Made by a program: the position numbers and the translations under genes
Assembly (NCBI GenBank): GCA_050084515.1
Contig: CM114271.1
Span: 4,464,001 to 4,528,000 of the forward strand
Length of the DNA stretch: 64,000 nt
Direction: 5' to 3'
From: Blasia pusilla
Taxonomy: Eukaryota
Shown here: positions 9,501-62,731 of the stretch, in pieces
How positions within the stretch are numbered: position 1 is the stretch's first letter
Layout of the letters: every line of letters begins with the position of its first letter
The notes under the pieces: model-generated
Seen by the model: only the letters and a program-made list of their open reading frames with translations
What the model was told of the DNA's origin: nothing
Database searches by the model: none

Positions 9501-12500
9501 ACGAGACCATCTTCAGATAGAGCTGTGCTATGAGTCATTCCTGCTGATATAGCTACCACATGTAAACGTTCTGACAAATGAAATTTGACAGGCTGAGATC
9601 CTGCTTTTCTGGTGTTTCGTGTGACAAGTATACGCCGTGGATTGACCATTTTGTAGCCCCAAGTGAATACCTGTAAGAGGGACCTCATTAGAAAGCTGAG
9701 AAATTAAAATGAACTAACAATCTCCAAGCACAGTTCTGTCAATTCCCATGGCCATATTGGCTTCCCATGGATAATAAATCACTTCATCCATTCACTCTCT
9801 CAAGTTTATCCTATCTCTCCCTTCTTCTCATACAATGCTGATTACGTCTAGACTAAGATCCCCACAGGTAAATGACTGATATACATAAAGAACAGTTCCT
9901 GAGCTAAGTATCAATCTCTCGACATTCTATGGTAATCCTGCACGAGGCCCCCACTTTCATCCAAACAGGAAAGACGAATTGGGTTGAATGGCCCAACTCA
10001 CCTCTCCTTCTGCTCCCAACACTACAGTGTGATATTTAGCTGTGGCCACAGACGTCAACTTTTTCCCCTTCAGACAATCAACACAACGTGGAATGTAATT
10101 TGAAGTGGAATTCGACGTCCCGTAGCCCAACTGGCCCTCAAGATTGCAACCCCAGGTGAAAACCTCCCCGGCTTCTGTTAAAACCGCATTGTGCTTGTTT
10201 GCTGCTGCCACTCTGACAACTTTGGCTTTCAAGATGTTTACACGGCGGGGAGTTGGTTGTGTATCAACTGAAGGATACCCAAGACGGCCCTCTGCAAATC
10301 CGAAAGAACATATCAGTAGGAAGCCAAACAGCATTATACCTCTTAAATGCCTGGAATTCCAAAATCAGCAATATCTGAAAAATAGAGAAAATATAATACT
10401 AGGTTCCTCTAAATGATGCAGATGTTCCAAAATCCAGTTGCTTGACCACAAGTTTGACACAATTGGCAGGAATAAGAAGAAAAACTGCACTGAATTTGGA
10501 ATCAGAAGATGAATATTCTTTATTTACTGCATGGAAATCATAATCTATAAATTCCTTGCCTCGATTTGAACCCCAAGTGTACACTTCTCCCCCATCTGTG
10601 GCCACAATGGTATGGTGTTTGGCAACAGCTATCACCTTCACAGCTCTGCATCCGAAACTATTTGTGATCTGGCGAGGAACAATGACTGCAACCTGACCAC
10701 TGCAGGAAAAATACGAGAGCTGTATTAGACTGTAATCCTGTGTGAATTGCAGAGAGAAGCGGACAGCCAATATCTTCTCAGGGAATTCCAGAGTTCTCTC
10801 ACTCGAAACATATGGTGCTTTGTTCTCATACAAAATGATCTTATATTTCCTTTTAAAGAGATGTATTGCTCTCGTACTAATTCTAACAGCCTGTTGAAAG
10901 GCAAGAAGTTGGAAAATCCATTTATCACAACAAGCTGTAAGGTCGTGAGTTGACCTATGAATGTCAAAGTCAGGATGTCCCAACCGACCGCCTCGTCCAA
11001 AACCCCAGGAGTACACTTCACCAGTAGCGGTGAGGGCCACACTGTGGAATTTAGCAGCTGCAACATCAATGACATCATTTCCTTGCAAGGCATCCACACG
11101 ACCTGGTACTCTTAAAATGCCTGTTGTCCCAATGCCTAGCTGATAATTGGACCCATTGCCCCAGCTGAACACTTCTTTGGAGCCTGCAGTCATAGAAATG
11201 AGTGTGAATTAAACCTGAAAGTTTCTCTTTCAATAAACACTAGCGAGAATCTTAAACAGAACCTCAAGATACGTGGATGAGCATAGCTAGAGATCAATCT
11301 ATCTCCTTGGACAGAATCACCAAGGAGGACTACGGAAAATTTCTCAGGTCCATGACACAGATGAGATGTGCAGCTGATATAGCAGCAGACAGTTTGACGG
11401 GTTGGGCTGGGGCTGGGCTGGGCTGGGCTGGGCTGAGCTGGGCTTGCGTTTAGCAATTGGAATTAGAATCTTGCCAGGGGTTATGATTTTTCTCCCATTC
11501 AAGGTGTTGATGGGAACATGTTGTGATTACTTAGATAGGAACAATAGCTCCTCACATTGGACCAGGGATGGCAGGTCATCCAGATGTTCTTATACTTTTC
11601 AAACTCATTTCTTCAACCCTGGTGAGAATAGCTTTCTCTTCTGCCCACCACGGTGAACACTTTCCTGAGACTATCTAAAGAGTTCAATTTCCATTTCCGG
11701 GTTTTAAGATCTGAATGGAAACTTTCGACAATTGCACATAAATCCTGAACTCCTGATGTGATCGTTATGTTGACATTAGTAGTCATGTCTTGATCTTAAA
11801 CAAGTGCATAACACTTACAGCAGTCTCGAAGGTGGACTCCTACACTTCTCATGGGTATGAGAATCACACCTGAATTGCTTGAGGTGAGCATTGACTGTTT
11901 CAGTGGACCCGATGTAAGGTCAACTGGTGTGCGGCCCTTTGAGTCCTCAAGAACCAAAGAGCCACCCGCTTCAATTAGCAGCCCAGCCACAGCAAGATGT
12001 CCAAAATGAAGGGCCTTGTGAAGGCTGCTCCATCCTGACTCTCCATCCTGAAAGAGCAGAAATCAATCAAAACTGAGTTTGTGATCAGGTTGCAAAGTCA
12101 GTTCAAAAAGCTTTTAGGATTAAAATTTTGAAACTCTCCGACTGCATGATGGCAATTGTGTGTACAATTCCTTTTATTCTATAATTCTACCTAATGTAAT
12201 ACGTTCAGCAGTATCACTCAAGTGCTAGGATATTCAACAAAAGAAGTAAAAACAACTTAATTGGTTGGCAAGATGATGGAGTACAGTGGTTTTTACCCGA
12301 GAATTAGGATCAGCTCCTGCAGCCAGAAGTCTCCTGACAACTGGAAGATGATTTCTCCAAGTTGCAACATGTAGAGCAGTGGAGCCAAAAGCAGTCTTGG
12401 CGTTGATATTCCCATTGGTTTTCTTCAGATGAGCTAGTGCCACCTCCACATCATGCACACTTCCATTTCGTGCTGCTGTCCAGAGATCTTTGGAAGTACC

Positions 12501-15315: not shown

Positions 15316-15950
15316 ACTTAGCGTAGCACGTTTTATATTAACTGCGGACTAAGTCGAGCGTAGCGCGGTTCATACGAAGTCCGGACTAAGATAAGCGGAG
15401 CGCGGTTAATACTAAGTCTGGACTAAGTGAAGCGGAGCGCGGTCAAAACTAAGTCTGGACTAACTTAAGCGGAGCGCGGTTAAAACTAAGTCTGGAATAA
15501 CTTAAGCGGAGCGCGGTTAATACTAAGTCCAGACTAACTGAAGTGCAGCAGGGTTAGTATTAAGTCCGGACTAAGTTGAGCGTGGCGCGGTTAATACTAA
15601 GTCCGGAGTAGGTTAAGCCGAGCGCGGTTAATACTCGAGTAAGTTAAGCGGAGCGCGGTTAATACTAAGTCCGGACTAAGTTCCGCGTAGCAGGGTTAGT
15701 ACTAAGTCCGGACTCAGTTAAGCGTAGCGTGGTTACTACTTAGTCCGGAGTAGGTTAAGCGGAGCGCGGTTAACACCAAGTCCGGAGTAGGTTAAGAAAA
15801 GCGCGGTTAATACTGAGTCCGGAGTAAGTTAAGCGGATCGCGGTTACTACGAAGTCCGGACTAAGTTAAGCACAGTGCGGATAGTACTAAGTTGGGACTA
15901 AGTTACGCGGAGCGCGGTTTATACTCAGTCCGGACTGAGGTTAATACTCT
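15316..15950. repeat. 37-bp CpG-rich tandem repeat array (~17 copies)
   Basis: Consensus ACTAAGTCCGGACTAAGTTAAGCGGAGCGCGGTTAAT. GCGCGGT recurs at 15363, 15400, 15437 and 15474 (period 37). Each unit contains the palindrome AGTCCGGACT. Confidence 0.93.
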
Positions 15951-16555: not shown

Positions 16556-17198
16556 TGTCGTTGCGCATACACATCGTTACACAACTTATATCGTTGTCAT
16601 CGAACACACACATAAACACACACAATCCCATGTTAACTCATGGCATCCATACACAGAGGCGAGAAGTACCAAAATATCTCCAATTAAAGTAGGATCCAAT
16701 CTCTCTCTACATCATCTCACACCATAGTTCTCAAAGGTGTGCACTCTCTCTCATGTCAAACCAAACCGACTCTCCTAATGAAACGCTTGGCTTACACTCA
16801 CAAGGCAAGGGACCATAGCTCCGCCGCCTCATGCCAAGAGGTTCAACAAAGAGAGAATGAGCTCTCAAGCTCTCTCTCCTTGAGGTATACCCCTCCCCTC
16901 TCCCAAGCTCTCTCCATGGTAACCTATTCTCCCAAGTCACCTCCTTGGCTTTTGACCTGATGTAGGAGGTCAAGAATCAATTACCAAAAATAGAAAGTCG
17001 ATCATTTAATCAACATGATATTTACCTCAAATAGTAAGTTTCTCAATATGGCTCCAAATGAGCCGAAACCAAGGGGAAATCTGCTCTCTCAGGTTTCCCC
17101 GGGCCTCAACAAGTCATCCTCGACCTCTTGGGTCTGTCCTCCACTACTCGTGCAGACGCTCTACTAGATCCCACCGATCTATCCTAATATTTGTGATA
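16556..17198 (-). mobile_element. LTR-like sequence (~640 bp) of the PHD-bearing retrotransposon family
   Basis: Its reverse complement aligns over long blocks with 26589-27179 (e.g. CATTCTCTCTTTGTTGAACCTCTTGGCAT; TTTGGTTTGACATGAGAGAGAG). On the minus strand it starts TATCACA and ends ...GCAACGACA. Confidence 0.7.
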
Positions 17199-17200
17199 GC

Positions 17201-18055
17201 TGTCGTGCGCATACACATCGCTACACAACATACATCGTTGTCATCGAACACACACGATCCCATGTTAACTCACGGCATCCATACACAGAGGCGAGAAGTA
17301 CCAAAATATCTCCAATCACCCCCCTAGCTGGTGGTTAGGTCCCTCTAACTCCAGATAGCCATCTATCCCTACCTACCATGACATACATCTCTAGGGTGCT
17401 AAGAGCATAAAGGTCGGGTGCTCATGTGGCCCCATCGTTAGTCGCCTTCCTATCATCCATGTCACAGAAAAAGTCGGAATCAAAACCTACCTAGTATCTC
17501 CTCTATGTACATCTGGGACACATCCATCGTCCTCGAGGAACCTTAGTGAGAGGTGGCGTCATACATGCCATATGCCAACCTCTCAAACATCCATCATAGA
17601 CTAGCATCGTGGCCGCACCACGAGCAGAACCACACAACATATAACGCAAGCGTGCAGGAACTACTGTTGAGCTCGGATCTACTATACCATCAATGTTAGG
17701 AAGATGACATGACGCACAATTATGCTTATGGTCCTTCCATACCATACCATCGCGTCCCTCCAACAAGAGAACACCAGAGGGCAAAACGTCACACACTCTC
17801 AGAATAGTGCGCCCTACAGTCACATCCAACGTCGGTGTCGTATGCTACAAGTAGACATAATCTCCTTGATGAAACCTCCGGATAGTTGGTCGATAACCAC
17901 CACCCCGAATAGTCGCATACCTCAACGTATCCCGATGCTGCGCAATCGCCAAGTTCTCGAACGCCATGGGCATCACTCTCCAAAATAACTCAGCCCTCTG
18001 AGAACAAGCTCGCATCCATTCATTTGGGTCATCAAGGTCCATGACCTCACCAGCA
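17201..18055 (-). mobile_element. Truncated second copy of the retrotransposon: integrase C-terminus + PHD finger, PPT and partial LTR
   Basis: ORFs 17845..18042 and 17503..17829 are closely similar to ORF 24239..24793 (RVMPMAFENLAIAQHRDTLRYAT; RGWHMACMTPPL..VP.GRWMCPRC). A G-rich PPT-like tract lies at ~17318-17326, followed by the last ~115 bp of the LTR. Confidence 0.88.
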
Positions 18056-18488
18056 TATCGACGACCTCACCATTATCTCGGCTTTCTCTCATTCAAAATT
18101 AGTAAAAATTCTCATTATTTTTGGCTAATCTTGCAAACAAAAAAATGAAGGTTGTATATTGAGAGTGAGCTCTATTAACATGCAATAGAAGTAAAACCAA
18201 CTTTTGTTACTTTGAGTTTGTTTTGTGAATCCTCTAAGAATGTCAGAAAAAAAGACCCCATTTGGTTTGCAATAAAATTGTAGACTGTGAGTGAAGTACA
18301 ATATTTAGCAAGTTACCAGCTCTTAAATTTGTGAGTATCTTTCGTGTAATCTAAGAGTACTTGGAGAGTCTTGAGACTTGTGAAATGGGTACATTTCTAG
18401 TAGGGAATGCTATCATTATCTTCGTCACTATCATACACCATATATAGTCTAAGGGCATCTCTACTCCACTATACATAGTGAATAGTTG

Positions 18489-21400
18489 TGTCACATCTGA
18501 GTAGCCGATAGGTCAAGATCTATCATGGATAGGGCATAGGAGCCAGCGGACTATCTTGAGTGTAACTTTGTCCCGTAGTGTCGGATGAGGTTGAGGATAG
18601 GTCCGTTGTGTCAGGAACGTCGTTTCTGACAACTTTCCTCTTGGGGTCTTTCACAACCGGGTGACTTATTGAGCAAGTCACCCGCCCTTGGTAACCTATG
18701 GGCATAGGTTATCACAAGGATAGCTATTTTTTAGGGGAAGAGCCTTTTGGCTCTTCCCAACCCTATATAAGGAAGGAAGATGGCTTTCCCAAGCCATCTT
18801 TCTCATGTTGGGCCGTTGGAGTACCATTCTTGCTCGCGTGTGTGAGTTAGAACTAGGTGCTAGAGTCTGGATTCCTTGATAGCACATGGTGGACAAGGCT
18901 CGATATGCCGATGTAGATTGAGGAGTGGAGTTTTAGGTTGGGTGTGCCGGTTTTACTACTCTTTATTTTTACATGAGAAAGATGTCAGGGGACTTGTGGA
19001 AATTTGTTGTTTGCATGTAGGCAAGCGAGTTGCCTCGGTCGGGAGCTCCTAGAGATGCGTGTGTTGCGGCCGTTGGTCAATTTTATGTTCGGAAGGCCGT
19101 GGGCAGAAGTGCTATCCATTTTTCTCAGATTTTGCTGGTGGAGGTTTACGAGGGAGAACAACAAAGTGGGGGTCACGCAAGAGCGCTCGGGTGCAGCGCA
19201 GAATGTTGGAGCGTCGAGAGAACGGCGCACAGCGGGAGCGTAGAAAGAAGACAGTGAGAGCTTGTAGGCCAACCCCTTGGCCCCCTTTTTCCCTTACGTA
19301 GTTGCAAGCGCCGTGGTCGGCGCCTTCTCGCCGTGGAGGGGCGGATGTGGTAGGGGTAGGGCGGTGGACATAGTTGGATGACAAGTTAGAGGCGCGGGTG
19401 ACGTGATAGACGGTCTGACATGGTTGAGTTTGGCCGGGGTTGAGTTGAGGTTACAAGGTGCGTCTAGGGATGGGCGGAGAGATTTTCAAGACGTGATGTT
19501 TCTCGAGCGTGGCGGGGATTTGAGAGGATTCTAATGGAGACATACACGCCAATGCTGATGGGAGGTTTGACGTGTTGGTCGAGGAGAGTGTTGTGTTGCG
19601 GAGGTTGTCATATCACATGGAGGAGTGGATGTTGACGGTGCCGTAGGTTGGAGGGCACAATCAGGTTATCCATTCGAGTCCCTTTTCCCGCACTTATCTT
19701 ATGTGATTGAGAGGGCTGGATGTCGTGTAGTTGTTGGGGCTAGATGCGTGTAGCGATGGTGACAAGTCTAGTCTCCATGTATGTGTAGCATGTTGATATA
19801 CGGAGGTTGCCAAGTAGGGATCACGTGTATGACCCAAGAGTATCAGTGGTTTAGGTGAATTAGTTGGGAGGCTCATGGTGAGCCCGAGTGTTGAGTGTGA
19901 GTGAGGTCGGGTGTGTCGTCACGGGATTACCATTAGTGTCGGTGAGCTGGTGAGGAGTGTGGCAGACGGAGGAGTGTCACTTGGCATGAGATGGACGACA
20001 TGGGCCATCGGGGCATGCGTTGTTTCTTGGATACAGTGGGCACCATTAGCTTAGATGATTTTATCTATGAGTTCAAGACGTGGTGCGACTTCCAGAAGAT
20101 ACGGACCCCGACACGGTTCAACCCTTTCATAACATGGAAGGGGTTGTTCCAGCACTTGGAGGGTCCTCTGATGGATGACTATATGGATTTTTGATCATTG
20201 TATTTAGTAGAGATCGATGCTTGGAGGATGTATTGGGCTCTAGGGTATGTATCCACTAGTGGTCGCAAGGCATATGATGGGATCGTGAGAGGAGAGAGAC
20301 CCACACCATCAACCCGGAGACTAGATGGAGAGGAGGCCAATGAGACAAGTGATGTGGCAGAGACCTCTGGTGGTAAAGGGCCACCCAGCTTTAGTTCCAT
20401 AGTGGAGTTCTTCCGAAAGTTGGGGACGAGCTACCAGAGCGTATGCACCGACAAGATGAAGAGTCTACAAGATTTTCAGTGACGATCGGGTGAGATTCTG
20501 AGAGAGGCATTCACCCGCATGAGGAGGTTGATCATTGCTACTTATGGAGTGACTGAAGCGCAGTCAATCTAGTATTGGTACAGGGTTCTGAACCGAGAAC
20601 TACGGAGGAGAGTCCGAGATGCAGTGCTGACTCACATAGCAAAGCCCACATTGAAGGTGGTCTTCGAGTTGTCAGCGTGTATTGAGCTCAACATGAGTGA
20701 GGAGCATGTAGTGACCGCTGGATTTTCTCGAGAGTCAACAAGTCCACGAGCGACGGTGATCCCATAAGTGCCACAGCAAGCACCAGTACCACGGGAGCGG
20801 GCCAATGTGCCTAGAGAGCAGGGCGGGTACCGTGAGCCTATGAGGCAACGACCCGTACCTACATATGTTGCCCAACAGGGACCAATGTTGTCTTGTTGGA
20901 GGTGTGGAGGGGACCATAGGCAGAGAGACTGCACACAGCATGGGAGAGGACCACGAGCGCCTGTGATTGCTCGGGATCCACAGAGGATGGCCCCACCATA
21001 GTACCACTGTGACTATTGCCACAGATATGGTCACACTAGGGATAGATGTTTTGACCTTTGTGGAGAGGCACGTCTAGAGGTAGGCCGATGGCCTGGGGGC
21101 GGTCGTCTTGGAGGAAGTTGGGGAGTTGTTCCTGGACATGGTGGTAGAGGACCACCACCAGCCAGAGGAGATTCAGCATGAGCACCAGAGCCGGCACTTC
21201 TCTCACGCATCGATCAGTTGGAGCAGAGGATTTCTGCCATGACGATGATGCATCTCAGGGAAGGCACGGAGCCGCGAGCAACTAGTGTGGCTCCAGCTTC
21301 TACCTCTCACCCTGACTCGGGTGAGGATCTGCTAGTATGGGGTTTATGTGTAATGCAGCTTAGGTTGAGGCTGATGCAGTGGTGATTTCGAGTGTTACGA

Positions 21401-24400
21401 GAGGCAGTGAGCCATCGAGAGGTGGAGTTGAGATTGACCGAGCGAGGAGACCGATGGGCAGCAGGCCAGGGTTCCAAAGTCATTCACATTGTCGAAGGCA
21501 CTACACACACCGTCGATGGTGCCTTGACAACCACCGGTGCCTACAAGTGAGGCGGGTGCGTCAACGTCACAAGAAGTTTGAGTGATAACTCCTATGTGGG
21601 CTTGAGGGGAGTCAATGTCGACCACAGTGTTGGAGGTGGCCACCAGAGTGAGCCAGACTCCGATATTTTCTGCCATAGAATTGGCAACGTTGGGAGTTGG
21701 ACCAGTTGAGGTGTTCTAACTGGCCACCATGTTGTGTGATCGTGGAGAGATGACTGCCTCTTGTTCAGAGGTAGTTGAGGAGGTGGTGGACTTGCCCTTG
21801 AAGCAGGTACTCGAGACGTCCCCCACAGAGTCATGGCATGCGGCGGCGGCGGCGAAGTTGGTAGATATTCTAGCTTGACCGGCCATAGAGCGAGAAATGG
21901 TGACAACTAGCATAGTGTTATTGGATAACCGAGCTTGAGTATTTCGCTTAGTTAGTCCGACGGGGACAACTTACCACCTGCAGCGCGTCCTACTTGATTC
22001 GGGAGCGCAACCCTTGATGTTAGGGAAGGCAGCATGTTTAGCGTTGGGGTTACGGAAGGCCGACATTGAGCCTTGTCCCTTCCAAATACAGTCCTCGATT
22101 GGGGGCGTATCGCCCATGTAGTATATGACTCGACACGAGATAGTTGTCAGAGTCCAGCCAGAGCATATGACGGATAGTGCTATGGTGCGCACACGTGCGA
22201 TTACGACACCAGCTGAGTCGTACAATGTGTTGGTGTGGGAATACAGTGTTATATCCCCTAGGATTCATCCTTGACTTATAGGAGGAGACCGTTGCTTATT
22301 GGCCAGGGTGGCGGTCAGGTGATGGGCGGATGAGTCAGTTACCCGCGCAGTTTGCGGGACAAGATGGTCGATCACGAGACGAGTCCGTGACCACGTTGGC
22401 AACTTTCACATATATTGTTAGCTGGCCAGGAGAGTTGTTGGAGGGGAACGCACATACGGAGGATGTCCCAATAGCGGCTAGTCCCACGGAGAGACATGCC
22501 ATGGCGGGTGTCTCTTCCCATGTTGGCGAGACCTCTTCACCATTGTGGGGTACAACTCGAGAGCTACAGAGGAGTGTCGACGACCTTGTAACGCAGGCGT
22601 GGAGTCATGCCTTTATCCTAGAGTAGTGAGAGTCAGGTGGCAATCGGGCCCCTGGAGTGGAGATGTTGACCTCATTGGATACCACACCCATTGTGTGGCA
22701 GTGTCCAGACAAGGGTGTTAGATCTCTTCAGAGGGATTAGCACCGGATTGGCTGCGATATTGCAGGCAGGCATACAGGTGCATCGGTACCTTTATGTGGA
22801 GAGAGATGAGACCGCGTGGCGAGTATCAATATGTCACATGGCAAGATTGGTCCGAAGGTATCATGAGTTGTTGCTGGTATCAACGGTACGGGGATATCAG
22901 CATACACTACGCGCCAACATCTCTTTGGTGGGGACGCAAGATCTGGATAGAGTTGAGGCCATTCATTTGGTGATTTTTGGATGACCATGTCAGGGTCATT
23001 CACACTTATCACTGATCATCAACCGTTGAGGTGGTTGATGGAGTCGGACAAGCTTACGGGAAAGCTTGCCAGATGGGCTCTATTACTACATGAGTATGAG
23101 TTCAAGGTGGTTCACATGCGAGGTTGGCTGAACCAAGATGCGGATGGGTTGAGTCGTAACCCATGTCTGAGTCAGAGAGATGACATAGGAGCTCAATGGC
23201 ACGGAGAGAGTGATGAAGAGATGATGCCCGGTTGGCATATATGCATCTGCCTATCTTTGTTGGTTGACTATGGTATGTCAGCTACATGTGATGACTCTAG
23301 TGGTGGGGTCGGATGATGAGTCTTTGGATCCGGAGGTTAGTGAGAAGGCGACATGTGGTCATGATATCCATGACGATGTGGAGGTTGTGGAGTTCTTGCG
23401 CATTGGCATCATAGCGAGCATAGTGAGTGCTAGGGAACGGAATCGGATCCTAAAGAGAGCCAGGAGGTTCAGGTGGGAGGGGACTCACATTTTGCAGGTA
23501 TGGGGAGATGGTAGGATACAAGTGGTACCTCATCCTTCCTAGCGAGCACGTGTACTGCAACATGTCCATGAGGAGTTGGGGCATTTTGGAATAAAGCATA
23601 CTTACAGCTTACTCCAGGTTCAGTATCGATGGCGCGGTAGTATAGCAGTTTGTGGCCAAATGTATGGTATGTGATAGAGTTCGAGCATCCTTCAATGCTC
23701 CCACTCTGTAGTTACATCCTTTTTCAATTATGGGTTAGGTTATCGGTGGAGTTTAGACTTTGCGGGACCTTTGCCATTGACGGGGCGTCATCATAGATAC
23801 GTGTTGGTCATGGTAGAGCATTTCTCCAAGTGGATAGAGTTGGTGGCACTATCGGACAAGGCGAGCAAGGGAATAGCTTATGCGTTTCTAGATCGTGTGC
23901 TTAGTCACTTTGGTATATCGGCGGAGGTGTTGACTGACCAGGGTATTGAGTTCAGGGGAGATTTTCAGGCCTTGTGTGATTAGACGTTGATAGATCACCA
24001 CACCACGTCCATAGATCATCCTGAGGTGGATGGGTTGGTGGAGAGAGTAGTACAAACGGTGAAGGGAGGATTGCGCAAGTATGGCTTGCAGCAGGGACAA
24101 TTAAGGGAGTGAGACCTACAGTTACCATGGTTGGCTATGGGTTATCGCTTTAGTCGGTAGGCATCCTTGGCGTCATTTTCACCATACTTTTTGCTCTTTG
24201 GGAGAGAGCCAACTTTACCTACAACTATTTGAGGTGACATGGTGGAAGTGTTAGATCTTGATGATCCAGATGTGTGGGTACAAGCGTGTTCTCAAAGGGC
24301 GGAGATTTTTTGTAGAGTTATGCCTATGGCCTTTGAGAACTTAGCTATTGCTCAGCATAGAGATACATTGAGGTACGCGACCATTTGTGGAGGAGGTTAT

Positions 24401-25006
24401 CGTCCACGGATTAGGAGGTTTCATCTTGGAGATTACGTGTATTTACAGCAGGCGTTACCCACAACGCTAGATGTCACAACACGGCGTACGATCCTACGTG
24501 TGTGTGAGGTATTATTGACCGGAGTCCTCATGTTGGAGGGACGGGATTGTATGGTTTGGAAGGATCATGTGCGCAATTGTGCACCATATCATCTTTCGAA
24601 CATGGACAGAAGAGTGGAACCGAGCTTGGCAGTGATACTTGCAGGCTTGAGGTGTATGTTGTGGGGATCTACGAGGGGTGAAGCCACCATGTTGGTATGT
24701 GATGGTTCTTCTCGAGGATGGCATATGTCATGTCCGACCCCCCCTTTTGATGTAGTTCCCACAAGACGATGGATGTGTCCGAGATGTGTCTAGGGTAGTA
24801 GGTCATGTCAGGGAGATGTGATATTTTCTATTTGGAGTTAGGGGGATCCAACTACCGGCTAGGGGGGCGGTTGTGTGATCTCCATGTATATGTATGAGTT
24901 GATTTATGGACATGTGTAGATCTACCCGTGTGTGGGAAAGATCGATGTTGTGTGGTGTGGATGTGACCAGTGATGTATGTTGTGTAGCGATGTGTATGTG
25001 CACGAA
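18489..25006 (+). mobile_element. Decayed Ty3/Gypsy-order LTR retrotransposon: gag-protease-C5 DNA methyltransferase-[RT deleted]-RNase H-integrase-PHD
   Basis: Gag-like ORF pieces from ~19991 with two zinc knuckles (CWRCGGDHRQRDC; CDYCHRYGHTRDRC). Protease LLDSGA at 21990. DNMT motifs at 22715-23002. RNase H C-terminus FTLITDHQPLRWL...KLARWALLLHEYEFKVVH. Integrase HEELGHFG, YVLVMVEHFSKWIE and VLTDQGIEF. C-terminal PHD. PPT AGGGGGGCGG at ~24861. Many stops and frameshifts. The left boundary is uncertain. Confidence 0.9.
22715..23002 (+). pseudogene. C5 cytosine DNA methyltransferase domain fragment (motifs I-IV) within retrotransposon pol
   Basis: Motif I VLDLFRGISTG, motif II-like YLYVERD and motif III-like ANISL. 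In the same frame, HLVIFG-TGA-PCQGHS (GGA TGA CCA TGT CAG GGT CAT TCA) corresponds to the catalytic motif IV GxPCQxxS. Confidence 0.85.
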
Positions 25007-25029
25007 AATTGCCTTGTGTAATTGCTGGG

Positions 25030-25345
25030 AGATGAAATCTTTCCCACCAAAAATTCTAAAGGATTCTCTAACATATGGGTCCAGAAATTTTTTAAAGGTG
25101 ACTTACAAGTGTCTTTTGAGTAATCCAAGAGTACTTGGCGGCTCTAAGGACTTGTGAACTGAGTAAGTTTCTAGTGGTGAATGTTGTCATAATTAATATA
25201 CCATATATAACCTAAGGGCATCCCCAATCCACCATACAAAGAGGATGGCTAGCTTATCCAAACTATCGATAGATGAAATCTTTCCCATCAAGCACTCTAA
25301 AGGATTCTTTAACATAGAGGTTTGAAAGTTTTCAAAGGTGATGGA
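25030..25345. repeat. ~242-bp tandem repeat, with a further related unit at ~18300-18520
   Basis: GATGAAATCTTTCCCA..TCTAAAGGATTCT..AAAGGTGA occurs at ~25031 and ~25273. GTAATC[CT]AAGAGTACTTGG and ACCATATATA..CTAAGGGCATC are shared between ~18345-18475 and ~25120-25240. Confidence 0.7.
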
Positions 25346-26588
25346 AAAAAACATGCACATATACATGATCTAGTATTGGATATATGATGCACCATGGGAT
25401 CTAAAAACAATTCCATTTAAGTCCATATTCTACTTATTTACATAGTAGAATATGGATGACTCATAAATATCCAATCATCCACCTATGCATGTTGTATTAT
25501 TACTCCAACACAACCATTAAATTCAATGAGAGAGTGGAATTTTTGTTTTGGTGGGATAGGAGTGAAGACTATGTATTTCTATGGATTTTTCCAATGTGGG
25601 AACTCATTGCTAAATTTCGAGTCCCAATGTGGAGATGCCCTAATAACATTGTTTCTACTATTGTTGAAGTTAGGTTTTGAGGGGGACTCTTCTTCTTATG
25701 CCTTTTGGAGACCTTGGAGTTTATTTCTCTTTGAATACCCCCTATTTAAATTATTCATAGATTCTTTCATGCACATCACTTACATAATTTATATTTTTTC
25801 TTTCAACACGTCATAATATGATGCATATTCTATGATCATCATACAGTTCACATAGTATTAAAAGGTTACATTTACTAATTTAATGTACCCCTACAACGTA
25901 AACAAGGGCATTTTAATAATCTATACTATTAAGGGATTATAAGTTATTGATTTTCCAACATCTCTCTACTTGACATATGAAAATGAGGTTGCAAGAAAAT
26001 GATTTGGTAGCAGGGGCTGAATTTTAAAAAACAAAATTTTGGGTGTATGATTATTGGTCATGTGATGTGTTATAGTATTTCTTATTCAAGAACTTTCCCA
26101 ATAATCATCTACCTTACTTAATTCAAGGAGGGAGAAAAAAAAACTAGTGTATAGCCTATGCTATGCACAAGACTAAATATCATCTGTTTGATTTTTCTTG
26201 AAAAAAATGCCTTGAAACCAAAGTAGTAAAGTATTTTCTTGCTGCATGTTGCCATGTATTAAATAGAGAGGTGTTAGCAAATCAAACAATTATCCTACTA
26301 ATATAGATTCATACTTTTTTTAAAGCCTAGCCAACTCGTTGTTGTTGAGCAAGAGTAGCATTGTGTTCTACCTTCTACTAATGAACAATCCTTTGTCGAA
26401 AAGCTTTTGCATATCGAATTATGTGGTGGTTTTTGATCCGACAGGTTTTGACTTGGTGTGTAGGACTAGTCATACTAAAGGTTTCATGACCAATTTAATA
26501 GTGAGAAATGAGGATTTAAATTATGTGGTGAGACATCTGACCAATGGATTATTCTTTTTGTAATGGAAGTTTTTTCGGCACTCACATA

Positions 26589-26948
26589 TGTTACATCCTC
26601 TAGGATGGATCGACGGAGATAGTAGGTTTTCCCCTTCGGTTTGGCTCAATGGAAGTTATATAGAGAAACTTACTATTTTGGGTAAATTTTGATTAGAAGT
26701 ATAGTTGAATTTCCACTTTGGGAAGTGGTCCTTGACCCTAGAATAGGTTAAAAACCAAGAAGGTGACGTGCGAGCATAAGTTAATATGGAGAGAGTTTGG
26801 GAGAGAAAAGGGGGTATACCTAAAGGGAGGGAGTTTTGGAATTCATTCTCTCTTTGTTGAACCTCTTGGCATAAGACGGCAGAGCTATGATCCTCGTTGC
26901 CTTATGAGTAGCCCAAGCCTCTCACTAGGAGAGTGTGTTTGGTTTGAC

Positions 26949-27009
<61 letters not shown>

Positions 27010-27179
27010 AGATGGAGTTTGCATAAGAGCTTTTGATTGATCCTGATTTGATTGGAGACATCTTGGTATATAATCGTCTCGGCGTTCAGATGCCATGAGT
27101 GAGTATGGTTTCTTACATGTTTGTATTTATAGTCGATAACAACGATGTATGTTGTGTAGCGATGTATATGCCCACTTCA
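26589..27179 (+). mobile_element. Solo LTR (TG...CA) containing a (GA)n tract
   Basis: Starts TGTTACATC and ends GATGTATGTTGTGTAGCGATGTATATGCCCACTTCA, the same terminal block as at 24972-25006 and the minus-strand copies. CATA flanks both sides (possible TSD). (GA)n at ~26951-27006. Confidence 0.72.
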
Positions 27180-27754
27180 CATATCTTTTAGATACTTTCC
27201 TGAAAATAATTGCTCACCATTCCCTAGAGAATCATCAACTCGCCCCTTTGTGTATTCCTTCTCCCTTCGTTATCATTGCTTATTTTCATCAATGCATCTC
27301 AATAGCATCATAACGAGCACAAGCATTGATGTTGATATATCGAACTGAAGTGGTTGATGACCACTCACCTCGTTGTCCATTTATATCTGACTAACCTCTA
27401 GTGTTTGTGCCATATTTTATTTCAAGCTATTAATCTCGTAACTCGTTGAGTTAGTTTTTGAGTTGACTTGTTGTAGTCTTCTTTTTGCATTCCTTTTTAT
27501 GTTTCTTGCTTCCTTCTCTTCTTAGGATGTTAGTGTCTTTCTTTTGCCTTTTTTAAGGTAAAGTAAATTCTACTCAATATATCCAAACCATTTTCTAGAG
27601 GAGGATTGTCCACTTAGAGGCGGATCTCATGGATGATTGCATAGGTCACTGCCATCCATTTTTCAAAAGTTCAACGATGCCCATGTTGCGAGAACGCTCT
27701 ACCCTAGGATCCAACCCTTAGACCTTATATTTACAACCAACAATTTTATCCCTT

Positions 27755-28245: not shown

Positions 28246-28946
28246 TTTTGTTATGAGTCGTACTATTAATGCTGGATAGGGCAACAGGCGAACCTGGCTC
28301 ACCGACCCTCACCTTCTGCGACGTCGCGTTGTTCCGATCGCGATCGTCGTGGAAAAACAGCGCGACGTCGCGACAGCGAAGTCTGGAGGACTAGGGCTTA
28401 CAAGTTTTCTCTGGAAGTTCGAACGTTTGAGGAGGCGAGGAGTTGTAGATTCGGACAATTTCACAGAACATGGGCTTCCCTTCTCCAATAGTGTAGCTCG
28501 GATGTTTGATATCGGCCGCCTCAAGGTTGAGAATAGCATTCCAGTTTCGCATCTCCGGTTCCTTAGCGCGTCGTAGGCATGGAACGCGAATCCAAAAATT
28601 TTATGTGGAGAGGTTGGCAACAAATTTGCGGTCCTTTTAGTCCCGCGGAAGTGTCGGGGGTATTTCTGCCATCTATCTAAATCGCTTCTGTGTATTGCGC
28701 TCGACTTTCAATTTGTGATCTTCCGAAATTAGTTTGGTCTTTGGCTTTCCTTCCAGCTACTGAATCTTGAATTTTTGTTCATTTCATATTTTGTTTACGC
28801 TTGCAGTGAGATTTCTGCTGATTAAGGCATCGCGAGGGAGCTGGTGATGCAAATTCGCGTGAGACAGAGCGAAGTGGCGGTGCTCGCGACCTTGGAGCGT
28901 AGCTACTGCTGAATTTTCAGAGCCGATCATCAGATTATCGGGTTAT

Positions 28947-30569
28947 ATGATGCCTTCGGCGGCGATTTTCAGTCCCGTTGAGGAGTCGTGTTCTGGAGAG
29001 GGCTCGGAGGAGATAGTAGCGGTGAAGGAGAGGTGCGAGGAATGTAGCGTTGAGGAAGCTAAGTATCGGTGCCCGGGCTGTGATTTGCGGTCCTGTGGTG
29101 TGCAGTGTGTGAAAGCGCACAAAGAGCGTACAAAGTGCAACGGAAAGCGGAAGCGCACCTCTTTTGTCAACATCAATCACTACGATGACAATTGGCTCAT
29201 TTCTGATTACAATCTCTTGGAGGAGACACTGAGACAAGCAGATGCTGCGAAGCGACTCAGAGAACCATTGGCTGCAAGCAAGAATGAGCTTCACCCCGCC
29301 CTCAAGGCATTGCAGAAGCAGGCGAAGAGTAGATCCACCACGCTTCTGTATGTTGCTCATGGGATGACAAGGAGAAAGACCAACACATCTTATTACGACA
29401 GAAAGTAAGTCCAGTTCCACTGATCGGTGTTATCTTAACCACAGTGTCCCATGAGCGATTTCTCGGTTTTAATTCTCAGACCCTTGAAAGTCTGAACAGT
29501 TAGAAGCCAGCGAGCTCAGCCACTTCCTGTGACCTAAACCCCTTCCTATCCCTTAGAGTGATGTGGAGCTTACTCTCTCCATCGGTTCCCCTTAAGATGC
29601 ACGTTTCGATTTTGGGTGAGAATCTTTACACAACCAGTCCGATTCTGATCTTGTGGTGGTCGATTCCCTGATTCTCCAAGGTTGATTTCTCGGTAGCCTT
29701 GTGCTCCACCCCATTTTAATTCATGCCTCTTCCTCAGGACCAAGCGCATATTCTGGAGAGTCGAGTGGGTCTTTGAAGGAACAGATCTCCGACTTGTGGA
29801 CGAAAGGTGAGTTTGTTCTCCCATTACCTCCTGTGATAAGCTGTGAGGGTGGGAGATGTGATGGGAATCTAGTTTTGGACGAATTTTTCCTTGAGTGAGT
29901 CGAATGTCGCAAGCAATTATTGCCACTTTGGGGAGCAGAGTTTGAACGCACGTCTCTTGTATTTGTGCGCAGAGTGGATGAGAATCTGAATCTAGGAGAT
30001 GTGCTTGCGAAGCACTTGACCCACGAAGGAGAAACCGCAATGGTAGGACATCGGTTGAGGAACTTTCGGTGGCAGCCATTAAGTGAACTCAAGTTGGTGT
30101 TGCCGAAAGAACAGTGCTCGGTATGAGTTCGAATCTCTGGTCTCAATAGTAGGAAGTTTGAACATTGCCTTAAATCCATCCGAACAAAACTGCAGAATTT
30201 TTTTCTTCTTGTGCGCATCTCAAGTACGCAATAAACTCCTCTTAGCATTTGTGTGACTCTCCTAATATCGTCGAGGATCATGCAATGCAGGCAGCAAATA
30301 AGGAATACTATGGCCTCAGTCTGACAGAAACACTCCGAGATCAGTTAGCAGACAAGTCCATCATAGAGTATCCTATCATCCATGTTCTTCTTCCTGCGGC
30401 TGCCGGGAAGTACGCACTTGTGGTGAAGCCACCTCCCAAAGTGCCCGATCAAGCACCGGAAGATGTGCCCTCCACTCCAACCCTTCAAGAACCTGAAGGG
30501 GTGCCCTTACGGGAGGAAGAGTTTGAGGAGGGTGAATGTGAAATTGAGGAAGGTGAAATTCTCCCCTAA
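28947..30569 (+). CDS. BCD1: zf-HIT box C/D snoRNA assembly protein (BCD1/ZNHIT6-like), 4 coding exons
   Basis: zf-HIT CEECSVEEAKYRCPGCDLRSCGVQCVKAHKERTKC, followed by LISDYNLLEE, GMTRRKTNTSYYD, IFWRVEWVF and TLRDQLADKSIIEYPIIHV. Exons 28947-29404, 29738-29806, 29973-30120 and 30291-30569 join in frame across GT-AG introns. Confidence 0.9.
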
Positions 30570-62139: not shown

Positions 62140-62355
62140 AATCTAAACATACGATACCATAATCATGGGTTTATACTTAAACGATTATATACCAAAAAGC
62201 CCATTGTAAAGAAATAAGAAATCAATAAACATAATCTCATAAAAAAACTCCTCAACTTCTTATTATTTAATCAACCCCACTTTCATGATAAGAGGTTTGG
62301 GTTACAAACACACAAGGCAAGGAGAACCATAACTCCTCCATCTTATGAAAGGTGG

Positions 62356-62410
<55 letters not shown>

Positions 62411-62731
62411 GTGATTATCTAATCCATCCCTTCTTCCCCAAGCTCTCCTACTCGTGACCTATGCACACTTGTGATCTAATATACAATAGTGTATTAAGTG
62501 TTTTCTCTAAAATAGGAAATAAACAAAACCCAAAAATGGGGAACTTACTTGACGTAGTAAGTTCCGAAAAATAGCTCCAAATGAGCCCAAAAAAAGGATT
62601 AACCTACTCACACGGGTGATCCTCCTCCCCAATAGGTTGTCGTAAACCTACCAAGACTGAAGTTTGATCTCCTCGAATTGATACGTTGCATGGATCCTCT
62701 ATTATAATACTCCAATCTAAAAGATGTGACA
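62140..62731 (-). mobile_element. Degenerate LTR copy with (GA)n tract
   Basis: Shares ACGATTATATACCAA, TAGTAAGTT...GCTCCAAATGAGCC and the terminal GATGTGACA with the reverse complement of 26589-27179 and/or with 16556-17198. (GA)n at ~62359-62406. Confidence 0.55.

Follow-up and report, generated by a model that had tools for sequence, protein, structure and literature searches.

What does a PHD finger do at the end of a retrotransposon integrase, and does it act together with a DNA methyltransferase (DNMT) encoded by the same element? These questions are raised by a window of 64,000 nucleotides from the bryophyte Blasia pusilla (contig CM114271.1, positions 4,464,001 to 4,528,000 of the forward strand), which carries two copies of a Ty3/gypsy-type element whose integrase ends in such a finger. 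A preliminary description of the window placed the finger of the first copy at 24239-24793 and proposed that the finger and the methyltransferase form an epigenetic reader-writer module within one transposon. The joint explanation that fits best, and which is considered probable, is that 24239-24793 is the integrase C-terminus of a dead Ty3/gypsy long terminal repeat (LTR) retrotransposon of the green-lineage Gypsy-DNMT3 clade, and that the finger belongs to a mechanism that tethers integration. The locus holds a genuine copy of such an element, but a dead one, and elements of this kind have been described before.

Both C-terminal peptides quoted in the preliminary description were located in the window, that of copy 1 on the + strand and that of copy 2 on the − strand. 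The last open reading frame (ORF) of copy 1 runs from stop to stop at 24233-24793 (+ strand, 186 codons), has the C-terminus ...RCMLWGSTRGEATMLVCDGSSRGWHMSCPTPPFDVVPTRRWMCPRCV and ends with the stop codon at 24791-24793; the coding sequence of copy 2 lies at 18063-17506 (− strand), has the C-terminus ...RYMLCGSARGAATMLVYDGCLRGWHMACMTPPLTKVPRGRWMCPRCT and is followed by the stop codon at 17505-17503. The DNA of the two copies is 74% identical across ~535 nt. In searches with the Pfam PHD profile (PF00628), which the preliminary description had named as a check, the ORF of copy 1 scored 27.5 bits (E = 3.3e-6) and that of copy 2 scored 33.7 bits (E = 3.8e-8); as both exceed the curated Pfam cut-off of 24 bits, the match is more than chance. 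The interval 24239-24793 does contain the finger, but it spans the whole last ORF, made up of an SH3-like C-terminal domain and the finger. The finger proper, from the first to the last ligand codon, occupies 24653-24787 (+) in copy 1 and 17643-17509 (−) in copy 2.

The zinc-ligand columns (C4HC3) were taken from an alignment of both copies with 43 relatives. In copy 1 the ligand string is C-W-C-S-H-C-C-C (CWCSHCCC), with ligands 2 and 4 gone (codons TGG at 24662 and TCT at 24707), and in copy 2 it is Y-C-Y-C-H-C-C-C (YCYCHCCC), with ligands 1 and 3 gone (codons TAT at 17643-17641 and at 17598-17596). The lesions are complementary, exactly as had been claimed. The full string CCCCHCCC was present in 35 of the 43 aligned relatives, and the remaining eight include truncated or decayed gene models. 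The full C4HC3 set is absent from each window copy, and because only six of the eight zinc ligands are retained in each, the window copies are read as mutated PHD members whose fingers are predicted to be unable to fold around two zinc ions.

The preliminary description was also right that finger and integrase share a frame. Copy 1 from the integrase through the PHD finger (23321-24790, + strand) was matched by one tblastn segment of the relative P0008 (residues 534-1028) in a single reading frame, and in intact relatives the integrase core (rve) and the PHD finger lie in one ORF. A host-gene exon or a chance match was ruled out as the source of the finger, since it continues the integrase frame and the same fusion is present in 42 of 49 homologues.

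These 49 homologues were recovered in a search with the 185-aa ORF. PF00628 was found in 42 of them, most with rve or reverse transcriptase (RT); the usual arrangement is a single protein that also holds rve, RT and RNase H. Organism names are available for Marchantia polymorpha (73% and 72% identity), Calypogeia fissa, Sphagnum fallax and Klebsormidium nitens. The K. nitens integrase protein P0044 is 43% identical over 89% of the query; the element KnitGypsy-Dnmt3 of this alga was itself compared by description only. In a scan of metagenome contigs, relatives were encoded by 546 of 600 pattern matches, from which 80 loci were kept, most of them decayed; in a scan of viral contigs, none of 40 pattern matches was confirmed as a relative.

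The architecture of an intact element can be seen in the nearly intact locus L043 (976-8229). Its ORF1 (1369 codons) encodes gag with two CCHC knuckles, a protease and a DNMT (GWPCQ and ENV motifs; PF00145, 51 bits), and its ORF2 (1047 codons, in the same frame as ORF1) encodes RT, RNase H, integrase and the PHD finger (PF00628, 40.6 bits). The full order of protease, RT, RNase H and integrase is present in L043, P0023 and P0008. From such sequences, intact members can be described as having the order gag, protease, DNMT3-like enzyme, RT, RNase H and integrase, the integrase ending with an SH3-like domain and, after it, a canonical C4HC3 PHD finger. The finger therefore stands after the integrase SH3-like domain, which is the position of the chromodomain in chromoviruses, as had been proposed; Pfam scans of the window copies and the relatives found PHD and no chromodomain.

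In L043 a single in-frame stop lies exactly between DNMT and RT; P0023 has no stop there. The proteins P0008, P0012, P0013, P0015, P0017 and others (1033-1171 aa) start just upstream of RT, and because several independent database proteins begin at this point, the stop in L043 could be a site of read-through that has been conserved, and not a lesion. At the other end of the polyprotein, the algal-type relatives P0031, P0032, P0033, P0037, P0039 and P0047 have ~100 extra residues after the PHD finger with the pattern ...GTV-Y-G.....F-V-Y-DG....T--EV...L. Pfam gave no match to this extension at E <= 0.01; it might form one more small domain, either a barrel or a reader. P0316, a eukaryote-type polyprotein of 1974 aa with RT, RNase H, integrase and PHD, comes from a metagenome-assembled genome with the source label 'Minisyncoccia bacterium'; algal contamination of the bin is the most likely explanation of this label.

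The predicted role of the finger was approached through its fold and its nearest solved relatives. The zinc ligands are invariant or nearly so in relatives down to ~40% identity. The C-terminal 200 residues of L043 ORF2 were modelled with AlphaFold2 on a 21-row alignment. The model had a mean predicted local distance difference test score (pLDDT) of 80.8, with 85-92 in the finger, and its parts are a long helix, a barrel of the SH3-like type and a finger that is well defined. In this model the interleaved two-zinc fold holds for the intact relative. The long Foldseek matches were to the Tudor-PHD or tandem-Tudor-PHD proteins PHF1, MTF2 and UHRF1, with a large root mean square deviation (rmsd), and reflect the arrangement of a barrel plus a finger. 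When the L043 finger alone was compared, it superposed on the PHD fingers of BAZ2A, BAZ2B, BHC80, ATXR5 and UHRF1 with an rmsd of 0.9-1.4 Å and template modelling (TM) scores of 0.78-0.83 (target-normalised), and in Foldseek also on the fingers of DPF2/DPF3 and MOZ. Identity to the closest fold matches was 36-49% over the domain.

Among the sequence matches listed, the best solved ones were CHD4, KMT2C, PHF12, KDM5B PHD1, DPF3, PHF21A, ATXR5, KDM5A PHD1, UHRF1 and AIRE (E = 2e-18 to 4e-9). The titles of the structure entries in the Protein Data Bank (PDB) refer to an 'unmodified H3K4 histone peptide' for BAZ2A/BAZ2B, 'in complex with histone H3' for ATXR5 and 'unmodified H3 N-terminal tail' for UHRF1. 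A signature ...CL-PPL---P-G-W-CP-C is common to the family and to H3-tail-binding fingers, and is conserved. Judged by sequence and fold, the nearest solved PHD fingers are readers of unmodified H3 tails.

The methyltransferase of the family has as its nearest solved structures the catalytic domains of DNMT3B, DNMT3A and DNMT3C (E ~1e-6). PF00145 was annotated in two of the 49 homologues, in the order DNMT-RT-RNase H-integrase-PHD in P0023 and RT-RNase H-DNMT-integrase-PHD in P0031; the same DNMT was found by BLAST in P0030, P0035, P0037 and P0045, and the Marchantia gene model P0005 has DNMT remnants laid out as in the window. The enzyme is sited in the protease/RT interval in the bryophyte type (P0023, L043) and in the RNase H/integrase interval in the algal type (P0030, P0031, P0035, P0037, P0045). 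The DNMT domains of the two types are 35% identical, and the two positions mean that the DNMT was either captured once and later reshuffled, or captured twice.

Co-occurrence of DNMT and PHD was counted in three ways. Among the metagenome loci, those with an RT and >1.7 kb of sequence upstream of it were treated as testable (33 loci), and in 29 of these a DNMT lies just upstream of RT. The four DNMT-less exceptions are 5'-truncated; three have no gag, protease or DNMT match and one keeps a C-terminal remnant of the DNMT. An exhaustive HMMER search with the L043 DNMT gave 2852 cluster representatives at E <= 0.001, of which 264 had E <= 1e-30. The best 150 of the 2852 include 65 with DNMT only, many of them short fragments, and 49 that reach through the integrase C-terminal domain; the family PHD finger was present in 42 of these 49. 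In a region search with the P0031 DNMT, PF00628 was present in 102 of the best 120 proteins (counted from the table). Chlorophyte sources of the DNMT relatives are Haematococcus lacustris and Scenedesmus sp.

A tree was made from 20 RT-to-PHD sequences using a quick method with SH-aLRT support. All 20 relatives on it carry PHD, whether their DNMT precedes RT, follows RNase H or is missing. In one main group the DNMT follows RNase H, and the DNMT-free pair P0032/P0033 is nested inside that group; the other joins the bryophyte-type clade, in which the DNMT precedes RT, to a sister trio that has no DNMT between RNase H and integrase. Since PHD is present in 20 of 20 while DNMT occupies two places or is absent (P0032), the finger tracks the integrase and not the DNMT. 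On these sequences the integrase of this clade has PHD throughout, and DNMT is a frequent but movable accessory.

By analogy with the chromodomain of chromoviruses, tethering of the integration site is the most likely role of the finger. The PHD finger would stay joined to the integrase and would tether the pre-integration complex to nucleosomes through the N-terminal tail of histone H3; the H3 state recognised is probably K4-unmethylated, by similarity to the nearest solved fingers. Insertions would then be biased away from active promoters, which is the job of the chromodomain in chromoviruses. The DNMT would be a separate accessory of the same element, and may methylate the new DNA copy.

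Several points weigh against this reading. Neither histone-binding nor integration-site data for the family were found in the literature searched, and for the nearest solved PHD fingers only some of the PDB titles state which ligand is preferred. Many readers of H3K4me0 are acidic ahead of the first Cys and in the segment from ligand 2 to ligand 3, whereas the bryophyte-type fingers are basic at both places (e.g. ...GLRCMLCGSARDAA...); the exact histone mark is uncertain because of these basic residues. The tree of 20 sequences is quick and midpoint-rooted. Finally, PHD and DNMT are found together almost without exception, as would equally be expected if their functions were coupled.

Such a coupling, in which the PHD finger reads the histone state and directs or licenses the DNMT3-like enzyme of the element, so that methylation of a new insertion, or of the DNA around it, would depend on chromatin, is judged unlikely. 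It would account for the frequency with which DNMT and PHD are found together (29 of 33 loci, 42 of 49 proteins from the best 150 of 2852, and 102 of the best 120 proteins), the exceptions among the 33 loci being 5'-truncated and not DNMT-free elements. It would also suit a DNMT of the DNMT3 type beside a PHD finger whose nearest solved relatives are readers of unmodified H3; the ADD domain of animal DNMT3 reads unmodified H3 and directs DNMT3. However, the finger is fused to the integrase and not to the DNMT, and RT, RNase H and integrase, or the integrase alone, intervene. DNMT and PHD are also far apart in the polyprotein, which in Ty3/gypsy elements is normally cut by the protease. The DNMT is moreover found at two positions and is absent in P0032, whereas PHD is constant. 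When the DNMT domain of KnitGypsy-Dnmt3 was expressed in yeast, in the sole bench test of a DNMT of this family, no methylation was obtained, a result that its authors called inconclusive (PMC5890265, section 10).

The reader-writer module of the preliminary description is therefore upheld in its parts and not in their union: there is a real PHD finger at the integrase C-terminus, in frame, and a DNMT3-like enzyme is present in the same polyprotein of relatives, but the coupling of the two was an inference, and PHD goes with the integrase. Taken as a whole, the coupled reading is placed between unlikely and doubtful. As for a working module in this window, the idea fails, given the stops in the integrase, the lost ligands, the missing RT and the DNMT that survives as a remnant, while copy 2 is a 3' fragment.

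A wider version of the pairing can be offered tentatively, and is regarded as possible but doubtful: that the PHD-bearing integrase and the DNMT3-like enzyme are an ancient, co-retained functional pair, extending from chlorophytes (Scenedesmus, Haematococcus) via Klebsormidium to bryophytes, in which the finger targets H3K4-unmethylated nucleosomes and the DNMT methylates the new copy there. If this were true, a heterochromatin-like state would be set up by the element for itself, serving as camouflage or self-limitation, which would be a transposon-borne equivalent of the logic of animal ADD-DNMT3, and the capture of the DNMT would be older than land plants and not specific to Klebsormidium.

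It is very unlikely that the finger instead reads another mark, such as methylated H3K4 or another modified tail, and steers insertion to active or special chromatin. PHD fingers as a class do include readers of H3K4me3, and one of the fold matches is a complex of the Ehd3 PHD finger with H3K4me1. The capture of a PYGO-like PHD finger by cnidarian retrotransposons has also been reported (10.1101/2021.11.30.470311). However, none of the 60 solved sequence matches listed is named as an H3K4me3 reader of the ING, BPTF or TAF3 type, and no complex of an H3K4me3 reader appears by name among these or among the fold matches listed. Cage-type readers of H3K4me3 have a Trp two residues before the ligand His, whereas the family motif R-G-W-H has a Gly at this position. 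That the finger is no histone reader at all, and is a zinc module for a host protein or nucleic acid or a stabiliser of the integrase C-terminus, would suit a specificity that is unreadable from sequence and the atypical basic residues around ligands 1-3, but is highly improbable given a fold and sequence closest to bona fide H3-tail binders (36-49% identity over the domain) and the conserved ...CL-PPL---P-G-W-CP-C signature.

Tethering of integration, as the preferred role of the finger, has its clearest parallel in the chromoviruses (e.g. MAGGY), for which chromodomain-guided integration is established (Gao et al. 2008, cited in PMC6673714 and 10.1101/2021.11.30.470311). The likeness is that of a histone-tail reader after the integrase SH3-like domain, with presumed chromatin-guided integration. 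The reader there is a chromodomain and here a PHD finger, and the probable mark here is the H3K4-unmethylated tail as opposed to H3K9me. Because its reader is PHD and not a chromodomain, the window element is an analogue of the chromoviruses and not a member.

The closest described element is Gypsy-DNMT3, or KnitGypsy-Dnmt3, of Klebsormidium (de Mendoza et al. 2018, PMC5890265), and the window element is regarded as a decayed member of the same group because of the DNMT3-type enzyme of its relatives and the DIRS-like repeats of the locus L029. Both are Ty3/gypsy elements with a DNMT3-type methyltransferase inside the pol polyprotein, reduced to a remnant in the window and present as a full domain in L043 and P0023. 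The terminal repeats of KnitGypsy-Dnmt3 are DIRS-like (PMC5890265, section 9 and Fig. 4c legend), and comparable orders are found here, as A-coding-B-A-B in L029 and as B-A-B in the window. The two differ in that the window host is a bryophyte, whereas the paper puts the acquisition in the K. nitens lineage (PMC5890265), and in that the window copy is a decayed and internally deleted relic. The discussion of that paper proposes self-methylation of the cDNA, without reference to a reader, and the term 'PHD' has no occurrences in its main text, although its figures and supplements may show a PHD finger.

PHD fingers in retrotransposons have been described as widespread (PMC6673714; PMC8557442; 10.1101/2021.11.30.470311). 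Those in elements of green algae and others (REM1, Perez-Alegre 2005; CR1, Kapitonov & Jurka 2003; Craig 2021) resemble the present case in having PHD as an accessory of the polyprotein, and are common in Chlamydomonas elements (via PMC6673714 and PMC8557442). A chromatin reader and a DNA methyltransferase in a single LTR retrotransposon are also found in the EpiLTRs of Cymbomonas and Euglena, described as an 'epigenetic toolkit', which combine a chromodomain, an adenine methyltransferase and a DNMT4-like enzyme (10.64898/2026.05.21.726589). The present family differs in having PHD and a DNMT3-like enzyme, and the EpiLTR preprint lists 'streptophytes (Gypsy-DNMT3)' as a separate, earlier-known case (10.64898/2026.05.21.726589). 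The CopiaMBD elements of arthropods likewise carry a captured host epigenetic reader proposed to guide insertion, but are Copia elements of animals with a methyl-CpG binding domain (PMC6673714). Gypsy-DNMT3 elements, PHD fingers of retrotransposons, and retrotransposons with both a reader and a DNMT have, going by these sources, all already been published or preprinted (PMC5890265; PMC6673714; 10.1101/2021.11.30.470311; 10.64898/2026.05.21.726589). No description of a PHD-DNMT3 pairing in Gypsy elements, or of the abundance of such elements in Marchantia or other bryophytes, was found in the literature searched.

The window itself is of little consequence because both of its copies are dead relics, and the significance lies mainly in the family-wide pairing of PHD with DNMT and in its wide distribution, not in this locus. 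DNMT3-carrying Gypsy elements, first known from one charophyte, are abundant in bryophyte-type DNA and present in chlorophytes, and they almost always bear a PHD finger on the integrase; this suggests that the capture of the DNMT is older and wider than first reported. The family provides a concrete system in which to study the joint use of a histone reader and a DNA methyltransferase by a retrotransposon, for which L043 supplies natural sequences.

Upstream of its integrase, copy 1 begins with a decayed gag-like region at 19979-21073 (+), matched by tblastn with residues 64-437 of the L043 ORF1 product (P0050; E = 6e-12). It contains two CCHC-type knuckles (~20894-20938 and 21008-21049) that were seen in ORF translations, the Pfam zf-CCHC match being weak (E = 0.36). 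An aspartic protease region follows at 21636-22235 (+), matched by residues 570-794 of P0050, with an LLDSGAQ motif in the ORF at 21939-22118; Pfam gave no match to this 60-aa protease ORF. The DNMT3-like remnant lies at 22715-23002 (+), where residues 941-1036 of P0050 match with 40.6% identity; it also matched residues 3-91 of P0023 in BLASTP (E = 2e-6). It consists of 96 codons, from motif I (VLDLFRGISTGLAA...) through motif IV, and covers motifs I-IV only. Motif IV reads ...LVIFG*PCQGHS, in which a stop replaces the W of the GWPCQ of relatives. As Pfam gave nothing significant for the DNMT remnant (DNA_methylase) or for the gag and protease ORFs of copy 1, these three regions were identified only by comparison with relatives.

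An RNase H tail was found at 22999-23262 (+; PF17917, 34.5 bits, profile positions 71-105 only; tblastn of P0051, residues 446-533). The match to P0051 starts at residue 446 directly after the match to P0050 ends at residue 1036, with the junction near 23000, and from these sequences it is deduced that an internal deletion near 23000 removed ~778 codons (~2.3 kb), taking out RT entirely together with the remainder of the DNMT and the greater part of RNase H. Beyond it the integrase has an H2C2 zinc domain at 23543-23671 (+; PF17921) and the rve core at 23678-23980 (+; PF00665), both of them, like the RNase H tail, above cut-off. Protease, RNase H tail, H2C2 domain and rve thus stand in Ty3/gypsy order, with RT deleted. 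The stretch from integrase through PHD (23321-24790) has 490 codons (1470 nt) with seven in-frame stops (23540, 23672, 23675, 23981, 24110, 24158 and 24230) and no frameshift. At least four of the stops are opposite Q, W or R of the relatives, as C-to-T or G-to-A transitions predict. The decay of this stretch is by point mutation only, and is consistent with deamination of methylated DNA.

Because of the seven integrase stops, the two lost ligands, the deletion of RT and a DNMT with only its first 96 residues and a stop in motif IV, nothing in copy 1 is expected to be functional. Both window copies can be classed on their sequence as dead relics, decayed by point mutation and deletion, in which neither reader nor writer would work.

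Copy 2 is a 5'-truncated fragment at 17506-18063 (−) that retains the last 187 integrase codons, encoding the SH3-like domain and PHD, with one in-frame stop (TAG at 17847). Its 3' terminal repeats lie at 16556-17316 (−) in the order B-A-B (B 17316-17201, A ~17200-16685 and B 16684-16556), B being a 129-nt direct repeat with 86% identity. When the 3' end of copy 2 was used in blastn at sensitive settings, it located the 3' terminal repeats of copy 1, which extend over 24880-27185 (+), with the first B at ~24880-25008 and A with the second B at 26616-27185; an inverted self-match of 79% connects 16744-17079 with 26959-26628. An AT-rich, unrelated insert of ~1.6 kb (25006-26615) splits the repeat block of copy 1 between the first B and A. 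The layout B-A-B is therefore present downstream of both window copies, and a 5' A for copy 1 was not found. An LTR search detected flanking LTR pairs neither in the window nor in L043. In L029 the terminal repeats have the order A-coding-B-A-B, A at 1676-2017 matching 10350-10691 (92%) and B at 10238-10350 matching 10693-10805 (94%). A further fragment like the A repeat of the element was seen at 62269-62649 (−) in two blastn segments of 67-70% identity, and probably represents one more family remnant.

Immediately past copy 2, at its 3' side, a tandem array with a 37-bp unit occupies 15320-15944 (17 copies, 79% matches). On the other side, 1.7 kb from the end of the element, an open frame at 28863-29405 (+) contains a HIT zinc finger (PF04438, 28 bits) together with the first part of a BCD1 domain (PF25790, 30.9 bits); a BCD1/ZNHIT6-like gene of the host probably has one of its exons here.

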